IMG/VR virus record: IMGVR_UViG_3300045988_152398
Source: a virus
Length of the DNA: 57,578 nt
Strand: one strand, 5' to 3'
Part shown: in pieces, positions 16,062-53,754 of the stretch
Numbering within the stretch: position 1 is the first letter of the stretch
Layout: every line of letters begins with the position of its first letter
Translations under genes and position numbers: made by a program
The notes under the pieces: generated by a model
The model's database searches: none
Seen by the model: the letters and a program-made list of their open reading frames with translations, nothing else
What the model was told of the DNA's origin: nothing

Positions 16062-17294
16062 GTGACAATTATTGATATTGATGTAAAAGTAAATCCCGCT
16101 TATTTGCCCTATATGAACAAAAAGCAATTCACACAAATATTTTTCGGTGGTTCATCAAGCGGCAAATCTTATTTTTTAGCACAAAAGGTTGTGTTGGATA
16201 ACCTGAACGGTGCAAACTATCTTATTTGCCGTAATGTAGCAAGCACTATTAACAAATCAACCTATAACGAGGTATGCAAAGCTATATCTAATATGGGGCT
16301 TATGGCATACTACAGAATTAACAAATCAAGTATGACTATTACTTGCACCCTGAACGGGCGACAGATTTTATTTGCGGGCTTGGACGACGCAGAGAAAATC
16401 AAGTCAATAACGCCTGCTGATAGTGTTTTGCATAGGGTGTGGATAGAGGAAGCAACAGAGGTAAAGTATTCAGCCTATAAACAGCTAACAAAGCGTTTGA
16501 GAGGTCATAGCGATATTTCAAAAGGCGTTATTTTATCTTTTAACCCTATCTTAAAATCCCATTGGATATATAAAACCTTTTTTGGCGGTTGGCAAGATGA
16601 TAGAAACTACTATGAAGATGATAATTTATCAATACTCAAAACAACATACAAAGATAATTTATTTCTGACCGAAGATGATATAAAGCAGTTGGAAGATGAA
16701 ACAGACCCGTATTATTACAATGTTTATTCGTTGGGTAATTGGGGCATTTTGGGGCATATCATTTTTCAGAATTGGCGTGTTGAGGATTTAAGCGACAGGA
16801 TAAATCAATTCGATAAAATTTATATAGGTATGGACTTTGGTTGGAATGACCCGACAGCAATACTTAAACTTCATTTAGACCGAAACAGAAAAAAGATTTA
16901 TATTATCGACGAAGTATATCAACAATATATGTCGGATAATGAGCTTTTGAGAACAGCAAAAGGTTTTTGCAAAAACCAGTATGTTATATGCGACAGTGCC
17001 GAGCCAAAGATGATTGATTTTTTATCTTCTAATGATGTAAGAGCAATCGGAGCAGTAAAGGGGGCAGATAGCATAATGCGTGGAATAAGGTGGTTACAAG
17101 ACTATGAAATTATAATTGATATACATTGCCAAAACTTTAAGAATGAGATAGAAAGTTATCATTTTACAGAAGATAAATATGGTAATGTATTAGAAAAGCC
17201 CGCAGGAGGTAACGACCACCTTATGGACTGTATGCGTTATGCGTTAAATGACGATATATTAGCGGCAGAGTGTAAAGCAGGAAAACGCTTATAA
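16062..17294 (+). CDS. terL: terminase large subunit (PBSX/XtmB-like)
   Basis: Walker A FFGGSSSGKS about 30 aa from the N-terminus. Nuclease-half acidic motifs. 410 aa. Confidence 0.85.
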   Translation: MTIIDIDVKVNPAYLPYMNKKQFTQIFFGGSSSGKSYFLAQKVVLDNLNGANYLICRNVASTINKSTYNEVCKAISNMGLMAYYRINKSSMTITCTLNGRQILFAGLDDAEKIKSITPADSVLHRVWIEEATEVKYSAYKQLTKRLRGHSDISKGVILSFNPILKSHWIYKTFFGGWQDDRNYYEDDNLSILKTTYKDNLFLTEDDIKQLEDETDPYYYNVYSLGNWGILGHIIFQNWRVEDLSDRINQFDKIYIGMDFGWNDPTAILKLHLDRNRKKIYIIDEVYQQYMSDNELLRTAKGFCKNQYVICDSAEPKMIDFLSSNDVRAIGAVKGADSIMRGIRWLQDYEIIIDIHCQNFKNEIESYHFTEDKYGNVLEKPAGGNDHLMDCMRYALNDDILAAECKAGKRL

Positions 17295-18094: not shown

Positions 18095-18260
18095 GTAAAA
18101 AAGAGGTGTATTTGTATTTGCAATCATCAATGGCAAAAAATAAATGATGTGTGTATATGCGTGCGTTGTGGGCTGACAAAGACCTATGACGGACGCATTT
18201 TATTTGATAGAAAACTACCAAATTACAAAAGAAAAAAGAGAAAGAAAAGGCGGTGACGCA

Positions 18261-19766
18261 ATGAGTGCGAGAACAGAATTAGAATTATTGCCGAAATTTA
18301 CAGCGGAGCTTGAAGCAATCCGAGAAAACGGCATTACAACAGAATTGCTTTACAAAATCATTCAGAAACACCAACCAAACGCCCTATATAACCAAAGTTT
18401 GTATAACCGATATATGGCGATTAACGGAGGTGTGCCGATTTATACCCGAGAACCGAGATTTGAAGAAGAACACCCGATTAACAATAAGCTGAATAATGAC
18501 TTTTTTAGTGAAATTGTTGATTTTAAAACGGGATATTTTGCAGGACAGCCTATTTCTTATGGCTATTCAAAAAATCAAGAAGCAAAAGAAGTAACAGGCG
18601 GTGAAGAAGGTGTTGACCTTGCAACAAAAACCGTTACAGACTTTACCACACGAAACAATATGTACGGTGTGGATATGGAAAACACCAAATTAGCGGCTAT
18701 ATATGGCTATTCGGGCAGACTTTTTTACATTGACACAGACGGCGACGAAAGAGTAATGCCAATTCACGGCTATGAAACTATTATTTTGTCTGATACAAGC
18801 ATATCCGAGCCTGAATATGCGATTAGATACTACAAAACTACAGACATTAACAATGCTGAAATATGGATTGTTGAATTTTATGATAATCACGATATTTACA
18901 CATATAGAGGTACTTTGTTGTCGCTGACTTTAGTAAGCGTAAAGCCCCATATGTTCGACTATTGCCCGTTACAAGGCATTGCAAATAACAAAGAATGTTT
19001 AGGCGACGCAGAAAAGGTGCTGACTTTGATTGATGATTACGACAAGATTGTATCGGATAATTCAAACGAGCTTGAAGCCTTTGTGCACGCCTATATGATT
19101 TTTGAAAACTTGAATATTAATGATGAAACCATTGAAAAAGGTCAAAAATCAGGTTCATTTGTATTCAGGAGTACAGGAACACAGCAAGGCAAGGCTTATT
19201 TTCTTACAAAAAATATAAATGACAGCTTTACACAAGACCATTTAAGCAGGCTTGAAGATAATATTTACAGATTTTCAAAAACACCGAATTTAGGTGATGA
19301 AACTTTTGGCTCTGCAAGTGGAATAAGCCTTAAATTCAAATTACACGGCTTAGAGACTAAATGCGGTATGTATGAAGCTCAAATGATGAACGCCGCACAG
19401 TATATGTGGAAGTTATTAGCAAGTGCTTGGAGCAAGAAGAACATTACAGTTGACCCGCTACAAGTGACTATGGATTTTGTCCGCAATTTCCCGCTTGACA
19501 CAATGACCGAAGCACAAACGGTACAGGCTTTAATTAATGCAGGCGTACCAAAAGAAATTGCCTATACTCAATTATCATTTATTGATGATGTTGATTATGT
19601 AATGGAATTGATAGAAGAAGCCAAAAGTAATATGCCGCTGTATGCAAACTTTGACAAAAACAATGATGAAGAAGAAACAGACGGCGAAGAAAACGACGAC
19701 GAAAAGAAAGAGGGTGAAGAAGATGAAGTAAAAGACAAAGAAAAAGAAAAAGAAGAAGAAAAATAA
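18261..19766 (+). CDS. portal protein (SPP1 gp6-like)
   Basis: ~500 aa, directly after the terL/HEG region. Acidic C-terminal tail. ATG at 18261 follows AAAGGCGGTGA. Confidence 0.75.
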   Translation: MSARTELELLPKFTAELEAIRENGITTELLYKIIQKHQPNALYNQSLYNRYMAINGGVPIYTREPRFEEEHPINNKLNNDFFSEIVDFKTGYFAGQPISYGYSKNQEAKEVTGGEEGVDLATKTVTDFTTRNNMYGVDMENTKLAAIYGYSGRLFYIDTDGDERVMPIHGYETIILSDTSISEPEYAIRYYKTTDINNAEIWIVEFYDNHDIYTYRGTLLSLTLVSVKPHMFDYCPLQGIANNKECLGDAEKVLTLIDDYDKIVSDNSNELEAFVHAYMIFENLNINDETIEKGQKSGSFVFRSTGTQQGKAYFLTKNINDSFTQDHLSRLEDNIYRFSKTPNLGDETFGSASGISLKFKLHGLETKCGMYEAQMMNAAQYMWKLLASAWSKKNITVDPLQVTMDFVRNFPLDTMTEAQTVQALINAGVPKEIAYTQLSFIDDVDYVMELIEEAKSNMPLYANFDKNNDEEETDGEENDDEKKEGEEDEVKDKEKEKEEEK

Positions 19767-19789: not shown

Positions 19790-20584
19790 ATGGCAAGAAT
19801 TTATTTAAGCCCGTCAAATCAGTATGCAAATTCATACGCATACGGCAATACCACAGAAATGGAACAATGCAATAAAATTGCAGTTGCGGCAGAAACCGCC
19901 TTGAAGCGTTGCGGTTTTACCGTAAAGCGTGCCCCTAAAGGACAGAATATGTACACCTCAATCAATGAAAGTAACAATTTCAAGGCTGATGTACATATCT
20001 GTATTCACACAAATGCAGGCGGCGGCAAGGGTACAAATGTTTTCGTGTACAACAAATCCGCAGAAAATCTCAAATACGCACAGCCCGTTTACAACGAGCT
20101 TGTAAAGCTCACAGGTAACGGCAGAGGAATTTCAAAAAATGACCTTGCAGAAATCAATCAGACAAATGCAAAGTGCGTTTATTGTGAATGTGAGTTCCAC
20201 GACAACGCAACACTTGCAAAGTGGATTATCAAAAACACAACAAAAATCGGTGAAGCTATTGCAAAAGGTATGTGTACAGCTTTTGGAGTTACATATAAAT
20301 CTGCAAGTAGTTCATCTACAACAAAGCCGTCACAGACTACAAAAAAACCGACAACAAGGAAGCCCACCAAATCAACATTTAAGCCCTATCTTGTTACGAT
20401 TACTGCAAGTGACGGATTAAATATCCGTAAGGGTGCAGGCACAAATTACGCCGTGTGCGGTTTAATTCTCAAAGGTGGAGCGTACACCATAGTTGATGAA
20501 AAGTCGGGTACAGGTGCTAAAAAGTGGGGCAAGCTCAAGAGCGGTGCGGGTTGGATTGCTCTTGATTACACAAAGAAGATTTAA
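19790..20584 (+). CDS. N-acetylmuramoyl-L-alanine amidase (Amidase_3) with SH3-like wall-binding domain; endolysin
   Basis: IYLSPSNQ..., DVHICIHTNAGGG, CECEFHD. S/T/K/P linker. C-terminal LNIRKGAGTNY...GWIALDY. Confidence 0.8.
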   Translation: MARIYLSPSNQYANSYAYGNTTEMEQCNKIAVAAETALKRCGFTVKRAPKGQNMYTSINESNNFKADVHICIHTNAGGGKGTNVFVYNKSAENLKYAQPVYNELVKLTGNGRGISKNDLAEINQTNAKCVYCECEFHDNATLAKWIIKNTTKIGEAIAKGMCTAFGVTYKSASSSSTTKPSQTTKKPTTRKPTKSTFKPYLVTITASDGLNIRKGAGTNYAVCGLILKGGAYTIVDEKSGTGAKKWGKLKSGAGWIALDYTKKI

Positions 20585-20609: not shown

Positions 20610-22196
20610 ATGCCAACAAGCGAAACAAGTTTAGCAGAGTTATTGCACGAAGTAAGGCGTATTGAGGAACACAGAACCATATTAACAGATAAGAAGATTG
20701 AAAAAATCTATCAGCAGTTAATGAAAGAATTAAACGCTTTTTTATCTGATTATTATATAAAATACGCAGATGATGAGGGCAAATTAACAGGGGCTATGCT
20801 TGAAGCACAAGGACAGAAAGCAAAGTTTTTAGAGGAATGTGTAAAGAATGTTGATAGTATTTCACCATTGGTAAAGAAAGAAATAACTAAACTTGTTGAA
20901 GAAACATACGCCGCTTGTTATTCAGGTATGGCAAAAGCCGTTAAAAAGGCGAAAACAACCGAAGAAATAGCCGAATATACAAAGGGAATGTCAGTAAGAC
21001 CCGAAGTAATGAAACGGGCGGTTAATAACAACATAAGCAAATTAACCTTGCCACCTATTTTAGAAAAAAACAGGCAGGAAGTTATATACGATATTCAGCA
21101 AACTTTGAATGTTGGGCTTGTAAACGGCGACAGATACGAAACAATGTCAAAGCGTATATCCGAAAGGCTCAATGTAAGCCGAACCAAAGCTAACAACATA
21201 GTACGAACCGAAAGCCACAGAAATGTTGAAAGCGGCTTTATGGATAGTGCTAAAAACATACAAGAGAGTTTTGACGGTAGCGATTTAGTCTATACGGCGA
21301 CTTGGCGAACAATGAAAGATAAGCGTGTAAGACCGCAACAACGCCGAAAAAGTGGCGGTAAGTGGAAAACAACATTAAGCAAGAACGGTGCAAACCATAT
21401 AAAAATGGAGGGCGTGACCGTTAAGGTAGGCGATAAGTTTAAACTTGAAACAGGTGTTACAACAGAAAGCCCGTCAAACAGCGGTTATGCAAGACACGAT
21501 TGTAATTGTAGGTGTTTTCTTGAATATGATTTAATGACTATTGAGGAATTTGAAAAGGCAACGGGCAAACCCGTTAATGTCGCAAGTCTGCACAAATCAG
21601 TAAGGCAGGCAATGAATGAGAACGGCATAGCGGATTGTGGGCTTGAACGCACTACAGATAGTGAGCGTTTTGCAAGTGCTATTGATAATGCGAAAAAAGC
21701 AAATAAAAACGGCGGTAGCGTTGATACACACCCTACAGAGGAATTAAGAACATTTAAAACCTTTGTTGCTAAAAATGATATGGCAGGCGTGGCGGTCAAG
21801 GCTGACGGCGATATAACAGCCGTATTCAAAAATAGCAATTACAAGCAAAGGGGCGTTGTGAACGACCTGATTATAACAGCAAGGGAAAACGGCGGTACAA
21901 AAATGGATTGTTACGGTCAATTCCTTGCTAATGCTTACGAACAATGCGGCTATATTCCTGTTGCAAGAGTACCGTTTAATGCTGATTATGTGTCAGACCC
22001 GTTATTACTCAAAACAAAGCCTGATGTTTATGTGCTAATGAAAAACACGGATAGCATTGATACCGTCATTAAAAAGAACGGTGCAAAAGCCTATAAGCTA
22101 TCATCACAAGAGCAGTTAGACAAGCTACCAACATTTGAGTATGACGACGCTTTAAATTACCGTGATAAATTATTGCGATTACAAGAGAATAAGTAA
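20610..22196 (+). CDS. MuF/SPP1-gp7 head-morphogenesis protein with extra ~220-aa C-terminal domain
   Basis: MuF core NIVRTESHRNV...HDCNCRCFLEY ends near aa 305. Residues ~310-528 are additional. Confidence 0.8.
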   Translation: MPTSETSLAELLHEVRRIEEHRTILTDKKIEKIYQQLMKELNAFLSDYYIKYADDEGKLTGAMLEAQGQKAKFLEECVKNVDSISPLVKKEITKLVEETYAACYSGMAKAVKKAKTTEEIAEYTKGMSVRPEVMKRAVNNNISKLTLPPILEKNRQEVIYDIQQTLNVGLVNGDRYETMSKRISERLNVSRTKANNIVRTESHRNVESGFMDSAKNIQESFDGSDLVYTATWRTMKDKRVRPQQRRKSGGKWKTTLSKNGANHIKMEGVTVKVGDKFKLETGVTTESPSNSGYARHDCNCRCFLEYDLMTIEEFEKATGKPVNVASLHKSVRQAMNENGIADCGLERTTDSERFASAIDNAKKANKNGGSVDTHPTEELRTFKTFVAKNDMAGVAVKADGDITAVFKNSNYKQRGVVNDLIITARENGGTKMDCYGQFLANAYEQCGYIPVARVPFNADYVSDPLLLKTKPDVYVLMKNTDSIDTVIKKNGAKAYKLSSQEQLDKLPTFEYDDALNYRDKLLRLQENK

Positions 22197-22217
22197 TTAC
22201 AAGAGAATAAATAGCAA

Positions 22218-22251
22218 AGAAAAAGGCGGGCTATATGCCCGCCTTTCTTTT
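22218..22251. terminator. bidirectional intrinsic terminator
   Basis: A-run, AGGCGGGC-TATAT-GCCCGCCT, T-run. Confidence 0.8.
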
Positions 22252-22468
22252 ATTCTAATGCGTCTGCTATTTCTTCAAGATTATCAATCAATGTTCTTAA
22301 TTTGCTGATTTCTTCTGTAATTTCTTCATTGTTTTTTGCGTATTTCTTCAAAGTCAACATTTTTGTACGGTATTTGTTTTCGTAAAATACACAACTTTGA
22401 TAAATGACATCTTTTGCAAGTGCGTCACCTAATTTATCTCTCATTAATTTGATTAAAGCGTTTGTCAT
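22250..22468 (-). CDS. hypothetical helical small protein (72 aa)
   Basis: ORF track. Second gene of the antisense cassette. Confidence 0.6.
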   Translation of the reverse strand: MTNALIKLMRDKLGDALAKDVIYQSCVFYENKYRTKMLTLKKYAKNNEEITEEISKLRTLIDNLEEIADALE

Positions 22469-22470
22469 AG

Positions 22471-22809
22471 TTAATTACCTCTTTCTTTTTTGTGTCTTTG
22501 TTCATTCAATTCTTCAAAATATCGTTTTCTTTCGGGTGATAATTCTTTTTTGAAATGTTGTTTTGTTAATTCTTTAGCTTTTTTAAGTGCCGTTTCGTTT
22601 CGTGCGAAATATTCTAACCGCCGAAAATCTTTTCGATTGCAATAGATTTTCATTGTATCGTCATAAATTTTCACCGTGTACCAATGGTTATTATAGGTGA
22701 TGTTAAGATTTTCTTTAATAAGTCTTAAAGCGGTTTTATTTCTGAAACTGTAATGCCCTTTGTCGTCGGCATAACAATTTTCAATGACTTTTATAATTTT
22801 GTCTTTCAT
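22471..22809 (-). CDS. hypothetical protein (112 aa)
   Basis: ORF track. Preceded by a long-form promoter-leader cassette. Confidence 0.6.
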   Translation of the reverse strand: MKDKIIKVIENCYADDKGHYSFRNKTALRLIKENLNITYNNHWYTVKIYDDTMKIYCNRKDFRRLEYFARNETALKKAKELTKQHFKKELSPERKRYFEELNEQRHKKERGN

Positions 22810-22876
22810 TATTTTTACCTCTTTCTTTCTGCAATCTTTCAGGTGTTGCCTACCTCTTTATTACACCTATATTATA
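22810..22876 (-). promoter_or_regulatory. promoter-leader cassette, copy c (long form)
   Basis: Minus-strand read: ATTGTAGTATAATATAGGTGTAATAAAGAGGTAGGCAACACCTGAAAGATTGCAGAAAGAAAGAGGTAAAAATAATG. Confidence 0.6.
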
Positions 22877-22970
22877 CTACAATAGCGTTATAAAGTATAT
22901 TCGCAATATTACCAAAGTTTGACACTTGTTTTTGTGTATTATGTCAATATACAGAAAAAGTTGAAAATGC

Positions 22971-22994
22971 TATAATAATATAGAGGTGAAGTTT
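22971..22994 (+). promoter_or_regulatory. promoter-leader cassette, copy e (short)
   Basis: GCTATAATAATATAGAGGTGAAGTTTATG. Confidence 0.45.
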
Positions 22995-23195
22995 ATGCAA
23001 AACGCTAATGAAATCATCGCCAAACTAAAAAAGAAGTATAAAGATAAAGGCGACAATGAAGCTATTGATATGATTGAACAAGCCGAGAGGGATATTCGTT
23101 ATATTGAAGCAAAAGAAAAAAAAGGCAATTATTCAGGGCAACCGTCCATTAGTAAAGCTATGGAACTTGAAGCCTATCTGAATGATTGGTATTAA
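22995..23195 (+). CDS. hypothetical small protein (66 aa)
   Basis: ATG at 22995, 6 nt after GAGGTG. Confidence 0.55.
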   Translation: MQNANEIIAKLKKKYKDKGDNEAIDMIEQAERDIRYIEAKEKKGNYSGQPSISKAMELEAYLNDWY

Positions 23196-23274: not shown

Positions 23275-23348
23275 AGGCAATTAGCATAAAGGTAATGCGG
23301 CGGGCTTTGAACCCGCACAAAGAGGGTCAGTACCTCTATTGCCTGCCA
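23275..23348 (+). tRNA. tRNA-Gln (anticodon UUG), CCA encoded
   Basis: Hand-folded cloverleaf. Acceptor AGGCAAT/ATTGCCT, U8. D arm GCAT-AAAGGTA-ATGC. Anticodon arm GCGGG-CUUUGAA-CCCGC. 4-nt variable loop. T arm AGAGG-GTCAGTA-CCTCT. G73 followed by CCA. Confidence 0.8.
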
Positions 23349-23420
23349 CAACCCGTAGCAAAGCTCACTTCCGCATTTGGAAACTGACAAAAAACTATGG
23401 GCAAAAAAATTAGAATATAA

Positions 23421-23456
23421 AAAAGAGCATTTCTATATGGAGTGCTCTTTTTTTAT
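23421..23456 (+). terminator. intrinsic terminator after the tRNA
   Basis: AAGAGCA-loop-TGCTCTT followed by T7. Confidence 0.75.
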
Positions 23457-23517
23457 ATACAAAAATAGCTTCTATACGGAGCAAAAACACTATTCTATAC
23501 GGATATGGAGGAAAACA

Positions 23518-24204
23518 ATGACACTTGAAAAGTTAAAGCAGTTATTAGAACAAAAACTGATAACACAAGAAGAATTTGACGAAATGTCAAAGAATGTAAC
23601 AGAGCCACCAAAGCCCGAACCCGACCCGACAGAGCCGCCAAAACCTGACAGCGACCCTGAACCGCCGTTTGATATTGAGAAAATTGACAAGATTGTACAG
23701 TCAAGACTTGATAAGGCAATGGCAGAGGAACGCAAGAAGAATGTTGACTTAAAGCGACAGCTTGACAGATTGCAGAAAGCAAAGCTCACAGACGACGAAC
23801 TCAAACAGATTGAGATTGACGAAAAGGAAAAGGCGATTGCAGAGCGTGAAAAGGCAATTACAGATAAAGAAAACAGACTTTATGCTGTAAAGGCAATTAA
23901 GGAAGCAGGGCTTGACGACGGTAGCGAAGTTTCATTATCACTTATTGATTTTGTTATGGGCGAAGATGAAACAGAAATCAATACAAAAGTAAAGGCTTTT
24001 AAAGAACTGTTTGACAAGGCGGTAACAGCAGAAGTCAATAAGCGTTTTAAAGAGAATGGATATAACCCGAAAGCAGGCACAAACCTTAATAACGGCGTTA
24101 ATCCATATACAAAAGAGCAATTCAATCTCACAGAGCAGATGAAGATTGAAAGCACTAATCCCGAACTTGCGGCACAGTTGAAAGCGGCGGCAGGGGTTAA
24201 GTGA
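23518..24204 (+). CDS. scaffolding protein
   Basis: ATG at 23518 after GGAGGAAAA. Pro/Glu-rich N-terminus, then coiled coil. Directly upstream of the capsid gene. Confidence 0.7.
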   Translation: MTLEKLKQLLEQKLITQEEFDEMSKNVTEPPKPEPDPTEPPKPDSDPEPPFDIEKIDKIVQSRLDKAMAEERKKNVDLKRQLDRLQKAKLTDDELKQIEIDEKEKAIAEREKAITDKENRLYAVKAIKEAGLDDGSEVSLSLIDFVMGEDETEINTKVKAFKELFDKAVTAEVNKRFKENGYNPKAGTNLNNGVNPYTKEQFNLTEQMKIESTNPELAAQLKAAAGVK

Positions 24205-30710: not shown

Positions 30711-33700
30711 ATGGCAGAAAATGTAATAAGACAAGACATAATACAGCTTGGCTTTGATATAGATTTAAGCGGTCTTAAAAAAGTCAATGATGAAATGGAC
30801 GATTTAAAGAAAAACATTTCAGGCGTTGGCAGTAATGACGGAATTGATAATCTAAAAAAAGAAACCGACAAAGCCAAAAATAGCGTAAATGGTTTGGGCA
30901 AAGAAACCGACAAGGCGACAGATAGCGTTGACGGTTTAGGTAAAAAAACCGACAAAGCCAAAAATTCATTAACGAGTTTAGGTAAAGTTAGCGTTAATCA
31001 ATTAAGCGGCGGTTTGAGCAAATTAGACCAAAAACTTACTTCTGTAGCAAAAAAAGCGGCGGGGGCGACATATACAGGTTTGAAAAAACTTGCGGGAATA
31101 TCCTTTAAGGCTCTTGGCGTTGGTGCGGGTGCAGTTAGTGCAATTATGGGTAATGCCGTTAAGGATTATGCAAACTTTGAACAGCAGATAGGCGGCGTTG
31201 AAACACTTTTCAAAAAAGACGCAAACATTGTACAAAAATATGCAAATGACGCATTTAAAACGGCAGGACTATCCGCAAATGACTATATGGAAACCGTTAC
31301 AGGCTTTGCGGCAAGTTTGTTGCAGAGTGTAGGTGGCGATACCGAAAAAGCGGCAAAATATGCTGATGTAGCTATTACGGATATGGCAGATAACGCCAAC
31401 AAAATGGGTACGGGTATGGAAAGCATACAGTACGCATATCAAGGTTTTGCAAAGCAAAACTATACAATGCTTGATAACCTTAAATTAGGTTATGGCGGTA
31501 CAAAATCCGAAATGCAAAGGCTTGTAAAAGACGCCGCAAAACTTGATAAAAGCATAGACGCAAGCAGTTTGTCTTATGGAAATATAGTAAAAGCAATTCA
31601 CGCAGTACAAAAGAATTTAGGTATTACAGGAACAACAGCAAAAGAAGCAGAAAAAACAATAAGCGGTTCGCTTTATGCAATGAAATCAGCTTGGGGAAAC
31701 TTAATGCCTGCATTGATACAAGGCGGTGACAGTTTCGACCAATGTGTCGATAATCTTGTTTCATCTGTAAAAACTTTTGCGGGAAATATTATGCCTGCAA
31801 TTAAAAAAGGTCTTTCAGGTGTTGGCTCTCTCATTGAAGAACTTTCGCCTATTCTTGCTAAAGAATTGCCCTCAATGTTTAATTCATTGCTTCCGTCATT
31901 AATTAAATCCGCAGTATCGTTAGTAAAAGGTCTTGCAAGTGCAGTACCTAAAATTATTCCGACGCTTGTAACAAGCGTTATACAAGCGATTTATGAAGGA
32001 TTTACGGGCGAAAAAATGAGTGGCGATATGTTCGCAAGTTTAAAGCAGAATGTGCAGAGTGCATTTAACGCAATTAAACAAATCGTTCAGGGAGTAATTC
32101 AGTTTACATCTCAACTAATGACCGCCCTTGCTCCTGTATTATCTTGGGTTGGTAATTTAGCACTAACCGTATTCACTTGGATAGGCAACAACATTAATTG
32201 GTTGCTTCCTATCGTTGGTGCTTTGGTAGGCGTATTTTTAGCCTATAAAGCGGTATTGCTTGTAGTTAATATCATCACGGGAATTGTTACAGCGGCACAA
32301 ACGATAATGGGTGTTGTTTGTGGCACATCATCAGCGGCGGCGGCGGCAGGAACAACAGCAGTTGGAACAGCGGCGGCGACAAGTGCACCTCAAATCTTAG
32401 CGTTTGCGGCGGCTATTCTTGCAGTTGGTGTGGCTATCCTTGCAATTTGTGTAGGTTTTGCATTACTTGTTCAGGCTTCCATTTCTCTCGCTAATGCGGG
32501 TTGGGGAGCTATTGCCGTTATGGGTGCATTAATTGTCATTATAGTGGCTCTTGCAGTAGGTGCGGCGGCTTTAGCCCCCGCTTTAACGGTAGGTGCTGTC
32601 GGGCTTATAGCATTTGGCGTGGCAATTGCTCTTGTAGGTGCAGGAGCATTAATGGCGGCTATGGGTTTAAGTGTAATGGCAGGAGCACTTCCGACAATTG
32701 TACAATTCGGTGCAGTTGGTGCGGTTTCAATTATGGCATTGGGTGCAGGATTGACAATATTTGCAGTAGGAGCAGTAGCGGCAGGCGTGGCGGCTCTTGC
32801 TCTTTCGGTAGGGTTAGTTCCGTTAATGGCAGTAGTGGTAGTAGTAGCGGCTTCAACGGCTTTATTTGCCGCTTCTATGGCATTGGTTGCAGTATCAATG
32901 GCAATTATAACCGCTATGATTTCAGGATTTGTCGCTATGCTTTCAATGTTACCCGCCTTATTTGCGGCACTTGTACCGCAAGTTTTAATATTTTCGGCGA
33001 CAATGACACCGTTAGTAGGAGTAGTAGCGGCGGCTCTTGTACCGCTCACAGCGTTTACGGCTCTTATTGCAGTATTAGCAGTTTCATTTACTGTATTGGC
33101 TGTTGCTTCCGCTCTTATGGTTGTTTCGTTTGGAGCTATTAATGTTCTTTTAGTAGCAATGGTATTATTGCTCACAATTGTTAATATACAATTACGGATA
33201 ATCAGCACGGCATTTACAGCATTTGGCACAAGTGCTATGTCATTTATAGCAGTATTAGCACAGCTTGCAACAGCACTTACGGCGGCGGTTGTTCCGCTCA
33301 CAGCCTTTACAGCTTTAAGCGTAGTATTAGCGGCTTCGTTTTCCGTGTTGGCTATTGCGTCAATGCTCGTTGTCGTAGCGTTTACGGCTATCAATGCACT
33401 ATTAGGAGTAATGATGTTGTTGCTAACTATCATAAATGTAAATCTGTTAATGATTAGTTCTACATTTCCGATAGTAGCGGCAAGTTCCGCACAATTTGCG
33501 GCTTCGTTAATACCGCTTGTAACAGCAATGACAATAGTAATAGCACCATTAACCGCCTTTACAGCTTTAGTTACGGTTTTAGCGGCTTCATTCACAGTTT
33601 TAGCCGTTGCTTCAACGGTTGTATTGATTGCATTTACAGGAATAACAGCAATATTAACAACAATGTTGATGTTGATGATGATAATAAATATTCAATTAAT

Positions 33701-36473
33701 ACTATTGAACGGTTTATTTACTTCAATTGCGGCAAGTGCAATAGTGCTTACAGCGGCACTTCTTCCGTTGTCAGGAATATTTACAGCGTTGACAGTACCT
33801 ACATTACTGTTTACGGCAACTATGACACCTTTAACCGCATTATTTGTAGCACTTTCAGCAAGTGCAATGGTATTCCTTGTTGCGGTTACAGCATTATTAG
33901 TTATATTCACAGGAATAACGGCAATAGTAACGGCTCTCAATGCACAATTTATGATAATGTCAATGATGTTTACAATTCTTACAATAGGAATAAACTCATT
34001 GATTGTTACTTTAACGCCGTTACCTTTACTGTTTATAGCGTTAATGCCCGTTGTTTCAATGTTTACAGCGGTGATTACACCATTAACAGCATTGTTTTTG
34101 GTTCTCGGAGCGTCTGCATTAACCTTTACAGCGTCAATTACAGCATTAACGGTTGTAATGATATTGTTAAACACATTGATGTCCGCTTTCGTGGCAATGA
34201 TGATGATTTTATCCGTATTGTTCACAATGATTATAGCGTTGACAACTCAATTAATAATGGCGTTTACAATGCTCACAGCAACATTAACAATGTTGTCAAT
34301 GATAATCACAACAGTAACGCCTTTAGTGCTTGCGTTTTCAGCGGCATTACTTCCGCTATCCGCTACAATGCTTGCGTTGGTTGCACCAACATTAGTATTT
34401 ACAGGAATAATGGCGGGATTAATGGCAATATTTGTTGTGTTAGCTCCAATGGCAATGCTTTTTACAACCGCAATGTTAATATTAAATCCGTTATTCGCAA
34501 TATTGAGCCAAACAACGCCGATATTTGCGGAAGCATTGAAACCGTTGCCTGAAATATTTACAGCGTTGATAGCTCCCGCTACAGCTATGGTAGCTATATT
34601 AACGCCACTTGCAGGGGCATTTACTAAACTTGCATTAACAGCGGTAGTCTTTTTAGGTGCTGTCACAGGACTAATTACTAAAATAATGATGTTGACATTG
34701 TTATTTAGTATGTTGGTAGCGGTAGTTAATCGGCTTGCTATGGTATTTACTCGTATTGGAAACAATATCGTGAAATTAACAGCGTTGTTTATTCCATTTC
34801 AAATGGCATTAATGAAAATATGCACGCCGTTAGCAGTTGTATCAACAAGATTTATGAAATTTGCAACAGCACTTATATTTGTTGTAGCAGGAACAAAAGC
34901 TATTAACAGTAAATTCTTGGTAACAACAATCCTTTTAAAAACAATCGTGAAGTTATTAGGTGCATTATTATTACTGCTAAACGGTGTATCAAATGCGTTT
35001 AAAGCGATAGCAAAAGCACCTGAAATATTTAATGTTGCACTTAACAATATGGCGAATAAAGGAATATCTACAACACAGAAATTTGTAAATGTTCTTCGTT
35101 CATTATTGATAACAACAAAGTTAATTGTTGCTCAAATTGCAATGAGTATTTCAAACATTGTTGATAACAGTATAAACAATATCGTTAAAAAAATTACTCA
35201 ACTTCCTAAAAAAATGGGCGACGGCATTAGAAGTGCAGGAAAAAGTTTGAGTAGTGCCCTTGTTGAAGTATGGGAAAAAGCCGTAAAAGCGTCGGTTTCT
35301 CCCGTAAACAAGGTGATAGACGGTGCGAATTGGATATTAAAACAATTTGGCTCTGACAAAAAGGTTGTGTCTTGGACGCCTTACGCAAAAGGTACAGACG
35401 GTCACAAAGGCGGTAATGCTCTTGTTAATGACGGCAAGGGTGCGGAATTAGTACAAATGCCTAACGGTCAATCATTTATACCGCAGGGCAGAAATGTATT
35501 TATTCCTAATGCACCTAAAGGAATGAAAGTGTTATCCGCAGAGCGTACAGCACAGCTTTTTGGCAGAAAGTCACCTACATTCCGTTATGCTGACGGTATC
35601 GGTGATATTGATGTATTCAGTTACATTGATAACGCAAAGGGATTGGTTAGCAAAATCAAAGACGGTATCAGTTATGACGGAATAAACGGTTTAGGACGAT
35701 ATATTGGTAAAGGAATGGTTGATACCATTACAAGCCAAATGCCGAGTTGGTTTGACAAACTTGTTGAAGAAATGGGAGCGGTCAATTATGACGCTTCACA
35801 AGGCGTAAAGCAATGGAAAGCAACCGTCATAAGGGCTTTGAAAATGGAAGGTCAATACAGCCCTGCAAATGTTGCAAGAACCCTATACCAAATGCAAACC
35901 GAAAGCGGAGGCAATCCGAGAGCTATTAACCTTTGGGATAGCAACGCTAAAAAGGGCACACCGTCAAAAGGTCTTATGCAAGTTATTGACCCTACTTTTG
36001 CAACTTATGCAAGAGCAGGGTTTGACAAGAACATTTACGACCCGTTAAGCAACATTTTAGCGTCAATCCGATATGCCAAATCACGGTATGGCTCACTTGC
36101 CAATGCCTTTAAAGGACACGGATATGCAAACGGCGGCGTAGCAACAAAGCCGAGTATTTTCGGTGAGGACGGTAGCGAAATGGCTATACCGTTATCGCAA
36201 AGCAAACGCCAAAGAGGTGTAAACCTTTGGGAAAAAACGGGCAGTTTGTTAGGTGTTGATTTTGGTGATTATACGCCTGAAAACAGCGGATATGTAGCTA
36301 ATACTACCACCATTGAAAACAACTCTTATTCGCCACAATTTACATTGAATGTAAATGGTGCAAGTGATGATAGAGCATTGAAACGCAAAATCAAACAATG
36401 GATAAGTGAAGCAATGGAAGAAACATTCGAGGGTATCGGCAGAGTAAACAATGTTAATTTACAGGAGGTGTAA
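30711..36473 (+). CDS. tail tape measure protein (1920 aa) with C-terminal lytic transglycosylase domain
   Basis: N-terminal coiled/repeat region, very large hydrophobic centre, and an SLT motif YQMQTESGGNPRAINLWDSNAKKGTPSKGLMQV. Confidence 0.9.
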   Translation: MAENVIRQDIIQLGFDIDLSGLKKVNDEMDDLKKNISGVGSNDGIDNLKKETDKAKNSVNGLGKETDKATDSVDGLGKKTDKAKNSLTSLGKVSVNQLSGGLSKLDQKLTSVAKKAAGATYTGLKKLAGISFKALGVGAGAVSAIMGNAVKDYANFEQQIGGVETLFKKDANIVQKYANDAFKTAGLSANDYMETVTGFAASLLQSVGGDTEKAAKYADVAITDMADNANKMGTGMESIQYAYQGFAKQNYTMLDNLKLGYGGTKSEMQRLVKDAAKLDKSIDASSLSYGNIVKAIHAVQKNLGITGTTAKEAEKTISGSLYAMKSAWGNLMPALIQGGDSFDQCVDNLVSSVKTFAGNIMPAIKKGLSGVGSLIEELSPILAKELPSMFNSLLPSLIKSAVSLVKGLASAVPKIIPTLVTSVIQAIYEGFTGEKMSGDMFASLKQNVQSAFNAIKQIVQGVIQFTSQLMTALAPVLSWVGNLALTVFTWIGNNINWLLPIVGALVGVFLAYKAVLLVVNIITGIVTAAQTIMGVVCGTSSAAAAAGTTAVGTAAATSAPQILAFAAAILAVGVAILAICVGFALLVQASISLANAGWGAIAVMGALIVIIVALAVGAAALAPALTVGAVGLIAFGVAIALVGAGALMAAMGLSVMAGALPTIVQFGAVGAVSIMALGAGLTIFAVGAVAAGVAALALSVGLVPLMAVVVVVAASTALFAASMALVAVSMAIITAMISGFVAMLSMLPALFAALVPQVLIFSATMTPLVGVVAAALVPLTAFTALIAVLAVSFTVLAVASALMVVSFGAINVLLVAMVLLLTIVNIQLRIISTAFTAFGTSAMSFIAVLAQLATALTAAVVPLTAFTALSVVLAASFSVLAIASMLVVVAFTAINALLGVMMLLLTIINVNLLMISSTFPIVAASSAQFAASLIPLVTAMTIVIAPLTAFTALVTVLAASFTVLAVASTVVLIAFTGITAILTTMLMLMMIINIQLILLNGLFTSIAASAIVLTAALLPLSGIFTALTVPTLLFTATMTPLTALFVALSASAMVFLVAVTALLVIFTGITAIVTALNAQFMIMSMMFTILTIGINSLIVTLTPLPLLFIALMPVVSMFTAVITPLTALFLVLGASALTFTASITALTVVMILLNTLMSAFVAMMMILSVLFTMIIALTTQLIMAFTMLTATLTMLSMIITTVTPLVLAFSAALLPLSATMLALVAPTLVFTGIMAGLMAIFVVLAPMAMLFTTAMLILNPLFAILSQTTPIFAEALKPLPEIFTALIAPATAMVAILTPLAGAFTKLALTAVVFLGAVTGLITKIMMLTLLFSMLVAVVNRLAMVFTRIGNNIVKLTALFIPFQMALMKICTPLAVVSTRFMKFATALIFVVAGTKAINSKFLVTTILLKTIVKLLGALLLLLNGVSNAFKAIAKAPEIFNVALNNMANKGISTTQKFVNVLRSLLITTKLIVAQIAMSISNIVDNSINNIVKKITQLPKKMGDGIRSAGKSLSSALVEVWEKAVKASVSPVNKVIDGANWILKQFGSDKKVVSWTPYAKGTDGHKGGNALVNDGKGAELVQMPNGQSFIPQGRNVFIPNAPKGMKVLSAERTAQLFGRKSPTFRYADGIGDIDVFSYIDNAKGLVSKIKDGISYDGINGLGRYIGKGMVDTITSQMPSWFDKLVEEMGAVNYDASQGVKQWKATVIRALKMEGQYSPANVARTLYQMQTESGGNPRAINLWDSNAKKGTPSKGLMQVIDPTFATYARAGFDKNIYDPLSNILASIRYAKSRYGSLANAFKGHGYANGGVATKPSIFGEDGSEMAIPLSQSKRQRGVNLWEKTGSLLGVDFGDYTPENSGYVANTTTIENNSYSPQFTLNVNGASDDRALKRKIKQWISEAMEETFEGIGRVNNVNLQEV
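33042..35050 (+). repeat. eight degenerate in-frame coding repeats (~74-95 aa) within the tape measure
   Basis: P-L-T/A/V unit starts at 33042, 33294, 33546, 33828, 34080, 34320, 34605 and 34827. The first three units are spaced exactly 252 nt apart. Confidence 0.7.
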
Positions 36474-52206: not shown

Positions 52207-53754
52207 TTATCTTTTTGTTTTTGTGTATAAGCTCCATTCAGGTTGCCCGTGCGGTAGCTTATGCCCAATTTGTTCGGTGGTAGGGGAGGTAAAGAGGAAT
52301 ACCTCTATTACCTCATTATCAATTACGATTTTCTCTACAAAATTATTAAAAATTGTTTGTAGGACTTCATCATCTGTCGTGTCGGATATTGACATCATTT
52401 TATTAAGATAGTCAACAATCATAGCGCGGGAAATTGTCATTTTTGTTTGTTGCTCAATAGACATAATCTGTATATCAATTTCTTTTGCTCTTTCCTCATA
52501 TTTTTTCATATGTTCAGCTACATAAGCATTGTTGACTAATTTCAATGACCTTAATTCTAATAACTCGGATATTTGAGATTTTACAGTAGATAATTCTTTT
52601 TTTAGTTGTTTAAGTTTATTTTTTTGGCTGTCAGGATTTTCACCTAATTTTGCTATAATCTCATTTGCAATTTGATAAATTGCTTTTTCGTTTAATATGT
52701 GTTTCTTGATTTCATTCAATACAGTTTTTTCTAAAAAATCCTTTCTTACCCTCTTACAAGTACACTCGGCGTATGTTTTACTTGTGGAACATACATAGTA
52801 TTTATAGTCGTACTTTTTGCCCCGCTGTACGCTTGCACTTCTTATCCCAAAAAAGTGCTTTCCACATTTACCGCATATTATTTTTCCTGTTAGGGAATAT
52901 AAATCCTTTCTTTTGCGAGGTTTTACATAGTTTTGGCTTTTATGCCGTTGTTGCACTCTATCCCATAACACTTTATCAATGATAGGTGGAATAACATCAT
53001 ATACAACAATCGGTTCGTGACCTTGTGCGTTGTACCTTAATACGCCGATATAAAAATCATTCCGCAACATTCGGGCAATGGAGGTAATACCGAACGGCTT
53101 TCCTTGCCTTGTTGAAGCCCCTATGCTTTTAGTGTAATCTTGCAAATATTTCAAGGAATAGTTATCTGCATACAATTCAAATAGTTTCTTTACAACCTCT
53201 TTTTCAAATTCATCAGGCGTGTACCTTTTCTTTTTCTTCTTTCCGTTATCAAATACTGTTTCTAATTTATACCCATAGGGAACAGTACCACCCGTAAAAT
53301 AACCTTGCTTTGCCATTTCCCGCATACTTGATTTTACAAAGTCTGATATAGTTTCACTTTGGAATTGGTCTATATCTGCAAGAACATTTATCATTAGCCG
53401 TCCTGCACTTGTATCGTCGTCCATAAGTTGAGTAATTGAGATTAACCGTACATTGTGTTTTTTGAACAATTTTCGGTATTTATGACTTTCGTAAGCATTA
53501 CGGAATATGCGACTGAATTTATAGACAACAATTACATCTATTAACTCATTTTTAACATCGTTTAACAATTCGTGGAACGCTTCACGCCCTGCAACCTTTG
53601 TTCCTGTTATTGCTTGGTCTATATATGTTTTCGTCAACGACAATCCTTGCTTGTTTAAATAATCTTGGCACTCGGACATTTGATATTCGATTGAATATCC
53701 GTCGTCTTGTTTTGTATCGGAATACCTTGCATATAACCCTATTCGTTTATACAT
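52207..53754 (-). CDS. int: large serine recombinase (integrase)
   Basis: IGLYARYSDTKQ catalytic motif, recombinase and zinc-ribbon region (CGKCGK...C..C.C), coiled coil. 515 aa. Confidence 0.9.
   Translation of the reverse strand: MYKRIGLYARYSDTKQDDGYSIEYQMSECQDYLNKQGLSLTKTYIDQAITGTKVAGREAFHELLNDVKNELIDVIVVYKFSRIFRNAYESHKYRKLFKKHNVRLISITQLMDDDTSAGRLMINVLADIDQFQSETISDFVKSSMREMAKQGYFTGGTVPYGYKLETVFDNGKKKKKRYTPDEFEKEVVKKLFELYADNYSLKYLQDYTKSIGASTRQGKPFGITSIARMLRNDFYIGVLRYNAQGHEPIVVYDVIPPIIDKVLWDRVQQRHKSQNYVKPRKRKDLYSLTGKIICGKCGKHFFGIRSASVQRGKKYDYKYYVCSTSKTYAECTCKRVRKDFLEKTVLNEIKKHILNEKAIYQIANEIIAKLGENPDSQKNKLKQLKKELSTVKSQISELLELRSLKLVNNAYVAEHMKKYEERAKEIDIQIMSIEQQTKMTISRAMIVDYLNKMMSISDTTDDEVLQTIFNNFVEKIVIDNEVIEVFLFTSPTTEQIGHKLPHGQPEWSLYTKTKR

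Follow-up and report, generated by a model that had tools for sequence, protein, structure and literature searches.

The minor head protein gp7 of Bacillus phage SPP1 is targeted by the portal, in few copies, into the interior of the procapsid, and has a role in starting infection (PMC6316719); it is a short MuF protein without a C-terminal extension (Jamet 2017, PMC5576092). Alarmone synthetases are an experimentally validated class of MuF toxin (PMC12226406), and the main texts of the MuF-toxin papers (PMC5576092, PMC12226406) characterise a single class of MuF cargo, the (p)ppApp synthetases. GNAT domains have been described, computationally, in the polyvalent proteins of phages, as set out in the accessible text of Iyer, Burroughs, Anand, de Souza and Aravind (2017, PMC5512222). 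For phages, MuF-fused cargo and polyvalent proteins are regarded as the counterpart of injected effectors. Here we analyse a viral stretch of 57,578 nucleotides (IMG/VR record IMGVR_UViG_3300045988_152398, the whole of which is called the window below), and within it the gene at 20610-22196, which encodes a MuF head protein with a long C-terminal tail. We read its product, with a probability of about 55%, as a gp7/MuF head protein joined to a very divergent GNAT-fold cargo enzyme, acting as a virion-delivered effector with a cognate inhibitor or immunity protein. The cargo family is large, unannotated and typical of the polyvalent virion-delivered proteins of phages.

A MuF head protein with a C-terminal extension

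The gene and its parts are as follows.

20610..22196, plus strand: MuF-plus-cargo gene, an uninterrupted open reading frame (ORF) of 528 aa plus stop codon
20610..21524, plus strand: gp7/MuF minor head protein core, aa 1-305 (Pfam, tblastn to SPP1 gene 7, PHROG head-protein families)
21525..21638, plus strand: linker, aa 306-343, two short helices predicted at lower confidence (predicted local distance difference test, pLDDT, of 55-60 over the first 20 residues of the tail model)
21639..22049, plus strand: predicted divergent GNAT-fold core, aa 344-480 (AlphaFold2 model, Foldseek, family conservation, hhalign to RimI)
22050..22193, plus strand: family-specific C-terminal helical extension, aa 481-528, with the motif L..LP...YD.A..YRD (conserved; three helices in the model)

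The Pfam family Phage_Mu_F (PF04233) matches aa 161-304 (nt 21090-21521) with 47.6 bits against a cutoff of 29.6 (E 3.2e-12), and the first 310 residues align by tblastn with gene 7 of SPP1 over aa 26-306, at 28% identity (E 1e-22). As this alignment spans aa 26-306 and SPP1 gp7 has no extension, residues 1-305 form a complete gp7 equivalent, and a further 223 residues (aa 306-528) lie past the MuF core. A previous reading of this DNA, made without database searches (the sequence-only reading), had placed the end of the MuF core near residue 305 and proposed a real extension at 21540-22196 (aa 311-528 plus stop codon); the Pfam match and the SPP1 gp7 alignment bear this out, and all four peptide strings that it quoted (HDCNCRCFLEYD, MAGVAVKADGDITAVFKNS, KQRGVVNDLIITARENGG and TKMDCYGQFLANAYEQCGYIPVARVPF) were found in the 528-aa ORF. 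The cluster of the protein has 37 members, seen on many contigs of ~57-58 kb, and all 15 of those listed are 528 aa long. Source annotations of the protein read only 'minor capsid protein' or 'gpF-like domain'. The linker is the point at which the gene is split in relatives, giving a separate MuF gene and a solo gene.

Predicted fold of the tail

The tail was modelled with AlphaFold2 from 18 homologues, with a pLDDT of 89.6 and a predicted TM-score of 0.85. The elements assigned by DSSP run b1-a1-a2-b2-b3-b4-a3-b5-a4-b6-b7, followed by three extra helices, an order that matches that of GNATs in this predicted structure; the strand-helix pattern earlier ascribed to the tail agrees with the predicted secondary structure. 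In a Foldseek search of the PDB, GNAT acyltransferases accounted for 46 of the 47 top matches, with an acyl-homoserine lactone synthase at rank 26. The GNATs matched include an Enterococcus GNAT (2i00), N-acetylglutamate synthases, AAC(2'), NatB, the tabtoxin-resistance protein, Sulfolobus PAT and GCN5, and AtaT (6gtr) was found at rank 44 (E 0.18, probability 0.21). Fold matches in BFVD extend from giant polyvalent proteins of uncultured phages (TMq 0.89-0.79) through to phage N-acetyltransferases, and one of them is named 'Large polyvalent protein associated domain-containing protein'.

At the level of sequence, a local hhalign comparison of 265 family sequences with E. coli RimI and its close homologues aligned 125 columns from end to end at E 0.0044, scoring 23.4, whereas a reversed control scored 9.8 and 20 column-shuffled controls no more than 16.6; against the single RimI sequence, the family profile gave a match of 31 columns only (E 0.11). 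The tail had no match in Pfam, NCBIfam, PADLOC or PDB sequences, and two family profiles found none either. Its one PHROG match, phrog_2563 (aa 349-455), is to a family without assigned function. We conclude from the model that the tail is a GNAT-fold domain with a plausible catalytic centre and an unusual invariant Asp-Cys pair. Of the proposal that the tail is acetyltransferase-like, the part that stands is a separate GNAT-type fold, as indicated by the model and by Foldseek, whereas the use of acetyl-CoA is not established, the loop concerned being partial and unconserved.

Conservation and candidate active site

Three sites in the GNAT-fold core are used below.

21843-21860, plus strand: partial coenzyme A (CoA) loop, K412-V417 (alignment to RimI)
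21906-21911, plus strand: candidate active-site residues D433 and C434 (conservation on the model)
21936-21938, plus strand: candidate active-site residue Y443 (conservation on the model)

The alignment to RimI places K412-QRGV-V417 on QRQGLG, the acetyl-CoA pyrophosphate loop, D433 on Glu103, Y443 on Tyr115, and AYEQCGY on LYESLGF (motif B). We take Glu103 and Tyr115 to be the proposed catalytic base and acid of RimI, respectively, and the tyrosine of motif B (a4-b6) is the general acid in many GNATs. Motif B of the tail, L439...Y443-E-x-x-G447-Y, has the spacing of A..LYESLGF in RimI, with Y443 and G447 invariant among 159 members. Across these 159 diverse domains, at least 90% conservation is found for G428-G429, D433, C434, Y435(F), G436, L439, Y443, G447 and P450-V451-A452, and also for the C-terminal motif Y511-D..A..Y517-R-D519; the longer motif of the C-terminal extension, L..LP...YD.A..YRD, is conserved in at least 80-90%. 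The three candidate residues D433, C434 and Y443 are each kept in at least 95% of members (D433 in 158/159 and C434 in 151/159), and the D-C-Y...Y residues are retained among members less than 30% identical. Motif A (Q/R-x-x-G-x-G/A, in the b4-a3 loop) reads K412-Q-R-G-V-V417 in the window, with the final G/A missing; this loop is not conserved in the family, and its glycine is present in about half of 19 diverse members.

We compared the window with the related fusion L009. The MuF cores are 69-73% identical and the GNAT cores 90%, with synonymous divergence (dS) of 0.83 and 0.69, non-synonymous divergence (dN) of 0.21 and 0.067, and dN/dS of 0.25 and 0.10, respectively. The lower dN/dS at similar dS indicates that the tail is under stronger purifying selection than its carrier and has not been recently swapped in. 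Given this ratio of 0.10 against 0.25 and the 3,234 homologous clusters described below, the extension is neither a chance nor a decaying appendage.

Distribution of the domain across carriers

An exhaustive profile search identified 3,234 cluster representatives (50% identity) at E <1e-3, 294 of them at <1e-30; the first, word-indexed search for tail homologues was incomplete, since it did not return the cluster of the window protein itself. Among the best 150 representatives, 107 are longer than 800 aa (typically 1,600-3,800 aa) and hold the domain internally, with companions such as LPD38 (in P0025) and a MuF_C domain directly after the domain (in P0046). The ORFs that hold the domain in 17 IMG/VR contigs (13-55 kb) range from 640 to >2,500 aa. 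Several viral contigs of 25-55 kb (L038-L043, L046, L050 and L051) have single ORFs of >2,300-2,500 aa that overrun both ends of the 7.6-kb loci extracted; such giant polyvalent-type ORFs occupy much of the genome, and the six that were scanned had almost no Pfam matches.

We additionally identified C-terminal fusions of the domain to head proteins of three Pfam families (PF04233, PF06152 and PF25310). These comprise MuF1 fusions (the window, L009, P0022, P0023, P0024 and P0030), a MuF2 (Phage_min_cap2) fusion (P0029) and fusions to a VG15-type minor capsid protein in Microbacterium phages; the carrier in a Methanobrevibacter virus is annotated as a minor capsid protein. Solo genes for the domain stand directly after a separate MuF gene (L013/L014, L017), between the terminase and portal genes (L011, L015), or in the early region of a prophage, far from the head genes (L001). 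More distant solo members occur in Streptomyces phages and Rhodococcus plasmids, and carry depositor labels of 'acetyltransferase' (Streptomyces phages) or GNAT.

In GenBank phages the tail matched 23 records and the MuF core 163, with zero host genera in common, and most MuF homologues there have no tail. The presence of the domain on several carriers, as solo genes and in giant proteins thus indicates a transferable module and not a MuF-specific structural extension. The suggestion of swappable cargo is accordingly upheld, with the domain on MuF1, MuF2 and VG15 carriers, solo, and in giant polyvalent proteins; a structural MuF extension shared by all close relatives, which had been named as the finding that would speak against cargo, is not what this distribution presents.

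Two kinds of relative have further features of their own. P0023, whose MuF core matches at E 1e-132, is a three-part, mini-polyvalent head protein with MuF, GNAT-like and small-alarmone-synthetase-like domains; the last, at aa 530-741 after the GNAT-like domain, has a PDB sequence match to 8vx3 (E 1.8e-10) and was missed by Pfam. A set of solo versions (P0003-P0006, P0009-P0012, P0019 and P0043) share a conserved N-terminal motif, NP(Y/W)HD..G(R/K)F, at aa 8-41, which is absent in the MuF-fused, early-region and giant versions. This motif could be a capsid-targeting signal in place of the MuF carrier.

The neighbours of solo copies include Tad2-like, ART-PolyVal, 2H phosphoesterase, Gln_amidase, Apyc1-like and NADAR genes. 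The first three, together with HD_4 and a Gln_amidase fused to the prohead protease, lie in the portal-protease interval of L013, L014 and L017, and the Apyc1-like and NADAR genes adjoin the solo domain in L016. These neighbourhoods favour an early-infection, conflict-related role.

A conserved partner gene beyond an insertion slot

Four features lie downstream of the MuF-plus-cargo gene.

22220..22248, no strand assigned: GC-rich hairpin like a bidirectional terminator, with the MuF-cargo stop on one side and the end of the convergent minus-strand ORF on the other (consensus scan only)
22250..22809, minus strand: variable insert of two ORFs, of 72 aa (22250-22468) and 112 aa (22471-22809), outside the conserved module
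22948..22976, plus strand: promoter-like site immediately ahead of the partner gene, TATACA-17-TATAAT, its -10 extended by TG (consensus scan only, 10/12 matches)
22986..23195, plus strand: conserved partner, a 69-aa three-helix protein and putative inhibitor or immunity protein (linkage, homology, model)

An ORF of 64-67 aa comes after each of the solo copies first inspected, and these ORFs are homologous to one another and to 22986-23195 of the window, with 13 invariant columns. Partner linkage was scored with local hidden Markov models in 31 IMG/VR loci. All 14 loci at least 54% identical to the window tail (13 MuF fusions and one split MuF gene/solo gene) have the partner downstream on the same strand, and it also follows the domain in L001, L011, L013/14 and L015, with lengths of 64-70 aa among relatives. 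Of the 17 contexts in which the gap between domain and partner was measured, seven have -3 to 37 nt, a spacing that suggests translational coupling, and ten have 346-1,564 nt; the window, at 790 nt, falls in the wider range. This range indicates that a coupled gene pair was the ancestral state and that the intergenic space is an insertion slot. In the window the slot (22197-22985) holds two AT-rich antisense ORFs (GC 0.31), and the inserts of L024 and L030 are of 1.5 kb.

The partner is acidic in most copies and is modelled as three helices (pLDDT 85). It has no family in Pfam, PHROGs or PADLOC, and a tblastn search of GenBank phages returned nothing. Its divergence outpaces that of the domain but is correlated with it (mean identity 39% against 65%, Spearman rho 0.78); such a pattern has been reported for the IapK-type immunity proteins of MuF toxins (PMC12226406). 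From this divergence and the strict gene linkage, we infer that the partner is an inhibitor or immunity protein.

The sequence-only reading had looked for immunity in the products of 22250-22809. We rejected these ORFs as immunity genes, since they vary between near-identical contigs and are not conserved with the domain, whose conserved partner is instead at 22986-23195 on the plus strand. The 112-aa ORF is missing in two contigs ~98% identical to the window (L007/L008), and L009 holds an unrelated ORF of 88 aa in that place. Neither minus-strand ORF had a significant family match in Pfam, PHROG, NCBIfam or PADLOC.

Genomic setting

The MuF-plus-cargo gene sits in a head module, downstream of the portal gene.

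16062-17294: large terminase, head module
18186-19766: SPP1-type portal, head module
23377-24204, plus strand: scaffold, head module
52207-53754: large serine recombinase

The phage is temperate, as indicated by the large serine recombinase and as had been supposed. No genome related to the window was found by megablast in GenBank phages, and a scan of genome contigs returned no relative. The window and L007/L008 (IMGVR_UViG_3300045988_153197 and _144248) are three contigs ~98% identical and 57.6-57.8 kb long, and carry the same gene at differing coordinates and orientations, which fits a complete, circularly permuted (headful-packaged) genome; a divergent segment (~77% identity) lies upstream of the terminase region.

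In L009 the portal and MuF genes are directly adjacent. In the window they are separated by an N-acetylmuramoyl-L-alanine amidase gene (Amidase_3 and SH3 domains; 19790-20584, plus strand), an unusual location for a lysin; this insert is absent in L009 and present in L010 along with an extra ORF of 91 aa. A tRNA-Gln gene (anticodon TTG; 23275-23348, plus strand) lies in the head module between the partner and scaffold genes. The scaffold ORF as listed has a TTG start and ~47 N-terminal residues without a counterpart in L009, whose homologue begins MTLEELK, and the true start in the window is probably an ATG near 23518; the ORF also has a weak SHOCT-like match at aa 48-72. Finally, the ORF of 1,920 aa at 30711-36473 (plus strand), probably the tape measure, includes a stretch of raised GC (0.46) and reversed AT skew, especially over 32000-35000, and is overlapped in other frames by long ORFs at 32471-33595 (minus strand) and 32501-33142 (plus strand), suggesting repetitive or compositionally odd sequence.

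Proposed mechanism and its alternatives

The architecture, predicted fold, family distribution, module mobility, purifying selection and partner linkage that we establish directly form the starting point for a proposed mode of action. By extension from SPP1 gp7, the MuF part would bind the portal and place a few copies of the protein in the procapsid, and the protein would leave the capsid with the DNA at infection, as is also suggested by the MuF-toxin and polyvalent-protein literature. The fold and its conservation suggest that the GNAT-like domain may then acylate a host target in the early phase of infection, with the invariant Asp433/Cys434 (where strand b5 ends) and Tyr443 (in helix a4) as its active-site residues; the outcome would be either a blunted defence or an arrested cell. 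In producing or prophage-carrying cells, the three-helix acidic partner (22986-23195) would bind and neutralise the domain.

Several observations weigh against this reading. The best Foldseek probability is 1.00, but the TM-scores, at TMq 0.30-0.43 and TMt no higher than 0.60, are modest. The HH probability of the RimI alignment is only 8%, a low value that follows from a shallow template profile, since the search for RimI homologues yielded only sequences more than 80% identical. Neither the tail nor ten distant members of the family has a sequence match to any GNAT in Pfam, NCBIfam or the PDB: for the ten members, no Pfam or NCBIfam GNAT match appeared even at E up to 5, and profile searches of the PDB were empty. 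The acetyl-CoA pyrophosphate loop appears only partial in the window and unconserved across the family, and the invariant Cys434 is atypical for GNATs and may point to different chemistry. Fold searches with the partner gave only generic helical matches (E >1). No convincing partner was found at 17 giant-ORF loci within the flanks examined, the single weak match (L034, E 6e-4, inside the giant ORF upstream of the domain) being probably spurious; none of the giant proteins contains a partner-like segment, and the partner is absent beside the distant members L016, L018 and those of Microbacterium and Streptomyces phages. Inhibition by the partner is thus not a universal requirement. Finally, packaging and ejection are extrapolated from SPP1 gp7.

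It appears rather unlikely that the locus is a classic MuF polymorphic toxin for interbacterial competition, with a TacT/AtaT-like tail that would acetylate charged tRNAs and stop translation in newly infected, non-immune cells, and with the 69-aa partner as the immunity protein expressed from the prophage. The MuF N-terminus, C-terminal extension and small downstream ORF in a temperate phage do reproduce the architecture of Jamet et al., the partner evolves as an immunity protein might and has its own promoter-like site, the close relative P0023 also carries a toxin-type alarmone-synthetase domain, and AtaT is among the fold matches. However, AtaT ranks only 44th (E 0.18, probability 0.21) and the tail has no sequence relation to GNATs of the TacT/AtaT type, while the partner is a three-helix protein encoded downstream, with no Pfam family, and not an upstream antitoxin; the membership of the TacT/AtaT family earlier suggested is therefore not retained. 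Most family members, moreover, lie in giant multi-effector phage proteins in which no partner was seen, and the counter-defence genes beside solo copies fit infection-promoting effectors better than competition toxins.

The conservation of the candidate active site bears on two further explanations. The near-invariance of C434 (151/159) and D433 (158/159), the unconserved canonical CoA pyrophosphate loop and the failure of every GNAT sequence profile to recognise the family would all suit a GNAT-fold enzyme with non-canonical chemistry. Its Asp-Cys pair might form an acyl-enzyme, its donor might not be acyl-CoA but, for instance, the aminoacyl-tRNA on which Fem and L/F-transferases draw, or it might be a hydrolase or deacylase that depends on Cys. 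We regard this as unlikely, as motif B is invariant, as is the tyrosine aligned with RimI Tyr115, and ordinary acyl-CoA N-acetyltransferases head the list of fold matches. GNATs bind the CoA pyrophosphate through main-chain amides, so that degeneracy of the loop sequence is tolerated. The degenerate motif A and the missing GNAT profile match could alternatively mark a non-catalytic relic of the fold, serving as a structural, DNA-binding or capsid-filling appendage, with the small downstream ORF an unrelated gene of the head module; SPP1 gp7 indeed binds DNA and supports the initiation of infection without an enzyme domain (PMC6316719). Such a relic is very improbable, given that the polar D-C-Y...Y residues are invariant among members less than 30% identical, that a dN/dS of 0.10 denotes tighter constraint than on the structural core, that the domain and partner occur together in the early region of the L001 prophage, far from head genes, and that in giant proteins the domain has enzymatic effector domains around it.

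Beyond the virion-delivered GNAT-fold effector that we prefer for the window, a more specific proposal, which we put forward tentatively and would not yet bet on, is that the tail family is an unrecognised class of phage-injected acyltransferase effectors with an unusual Asp-Cys-Tyr active site, borne on MuF carriers, capsid-targeted solo proteins and giants, and that the MuF and solo lineage is checked by a new immunity family of three-helix proteins of 64-70 aa. If true, the target would be a component of host defence or translation, modified within seconds of DNA entry.

Comparison with known systems

The window family and the RimI-like N-acetyltransferases have the order of fold elements in common, that of the tail being taken from its model. 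The window family differs in that its sequence similarity is beyond the reach of Pfam, its CoA loop is degenerate, it has an invariant Cys beside the Asp, and it adds ~50 C-terminal residues (with the conserved YD.A..YRD) and an N-terminal linker.

With the type II toxin-antitoxin systems TacT, AtaT, KacT and ItaT, the locus shares the predicted GNAT fold and a small partner gene of a neutralising type, and by analogy the acetylation of aminoacyl-tRNA by TacT/AtaT may be a mode of action for the window domain too. In TacT/AtaT-type systems a DUF1778-type antitoxin is encoded upstream. In contrast, the window domain is attached to a virion protein and is not part of a chromosomal or plasmid addiction module, the upstream part of its gene is the MuF core, and its partner is downstream, three-helical, acidic and without a Pfam match.

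The MuF polymorphic toxins (Jamet 2017, PMC5576092; Apk2/IapK, PMC12226406) are like the window gene in that the head module of a temperate phage encodes an N-terminal MuF/gp7 carrier, extended at its C-terminus by a transferable domain and followed by a small (<150 aa) conserved immunity-like gene, here of 69 aa; the alarmone-synthetase-type domain of Apk2 is also found in the close relative P0023. The cargo differs, with a predicted GNAT fold in the window against the nuclease, metallopeptidase, ART and RelA-like classes of the main texts, as does the partner, which is a new family placed 790 nt from the cargo gene beyond a variable antisense insert. As a recognised toxin domain, the tail has no match in Pfam, NCBIfam or PADLOC, and no sharing with toxins of the type V, VI or VII secretion systems (T5SS/T6SS/T7SS) was found. 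The main texts of the MuF-toxin literature (PMC5576092, PMC12226406) name no acetyltransferase-type MuF cargo, and the window GNAT cargo would fall within the 66% there given as 'unknown domain'. The earlier view that such cargo is uncharacterised therefore holds for MuF toxins as covered in those main texts, but not for polyvalent proteins, in which Iyer et al. (PMC5512222), in the text accessible, describe GNAT domains.

The polyvalent proteins of Iyer 2017 are matched by most members of the window family, which lie inside giant multidomain phage proteins with LPD38 or MuF_C; both sets also have solo versions among late structural genes and a predicted role as effectors delivered with the DNA, as far as the accessible text of that paper goes. 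That text does not mention a MuF-GNAT fusion or a dedicated partner protein. Iyer 2017 describes two GNAT families, one of the BAR32501.1 type (from gammaproteobacterial prophages, with an ART neighbour) and a second with Mycobacterium phage Alice gp113 as its solo example. We considered whether the window family is the Alice gp113 family and rejected this (hhalign E 0.39); on this profile comparison the window family is set apart from the Alice gp113 family only.

The locus is a compact two-gene system, with a domain of 185-220 aa and a partner of 69 aa, and it represents more than 3,000 sequence clusters that lie outside the domain databases and are abundant in uncultured phages. The identity of the substrate would reveal the role of an acyl-transfer effector at the onset of infection and assign a function to a module of polyvalent proteins. 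Thus, as GNAT domains in polyvalent proteins were already described by Iyer 2017, the idea of GNAT cargo is not new in general; what is new here is a very large family of GNAT-like domains that the databases do not see, marked by a D-C-Y...Y signature, fused again and again to head-protein carriers and accompanied by a conserved partner gene.

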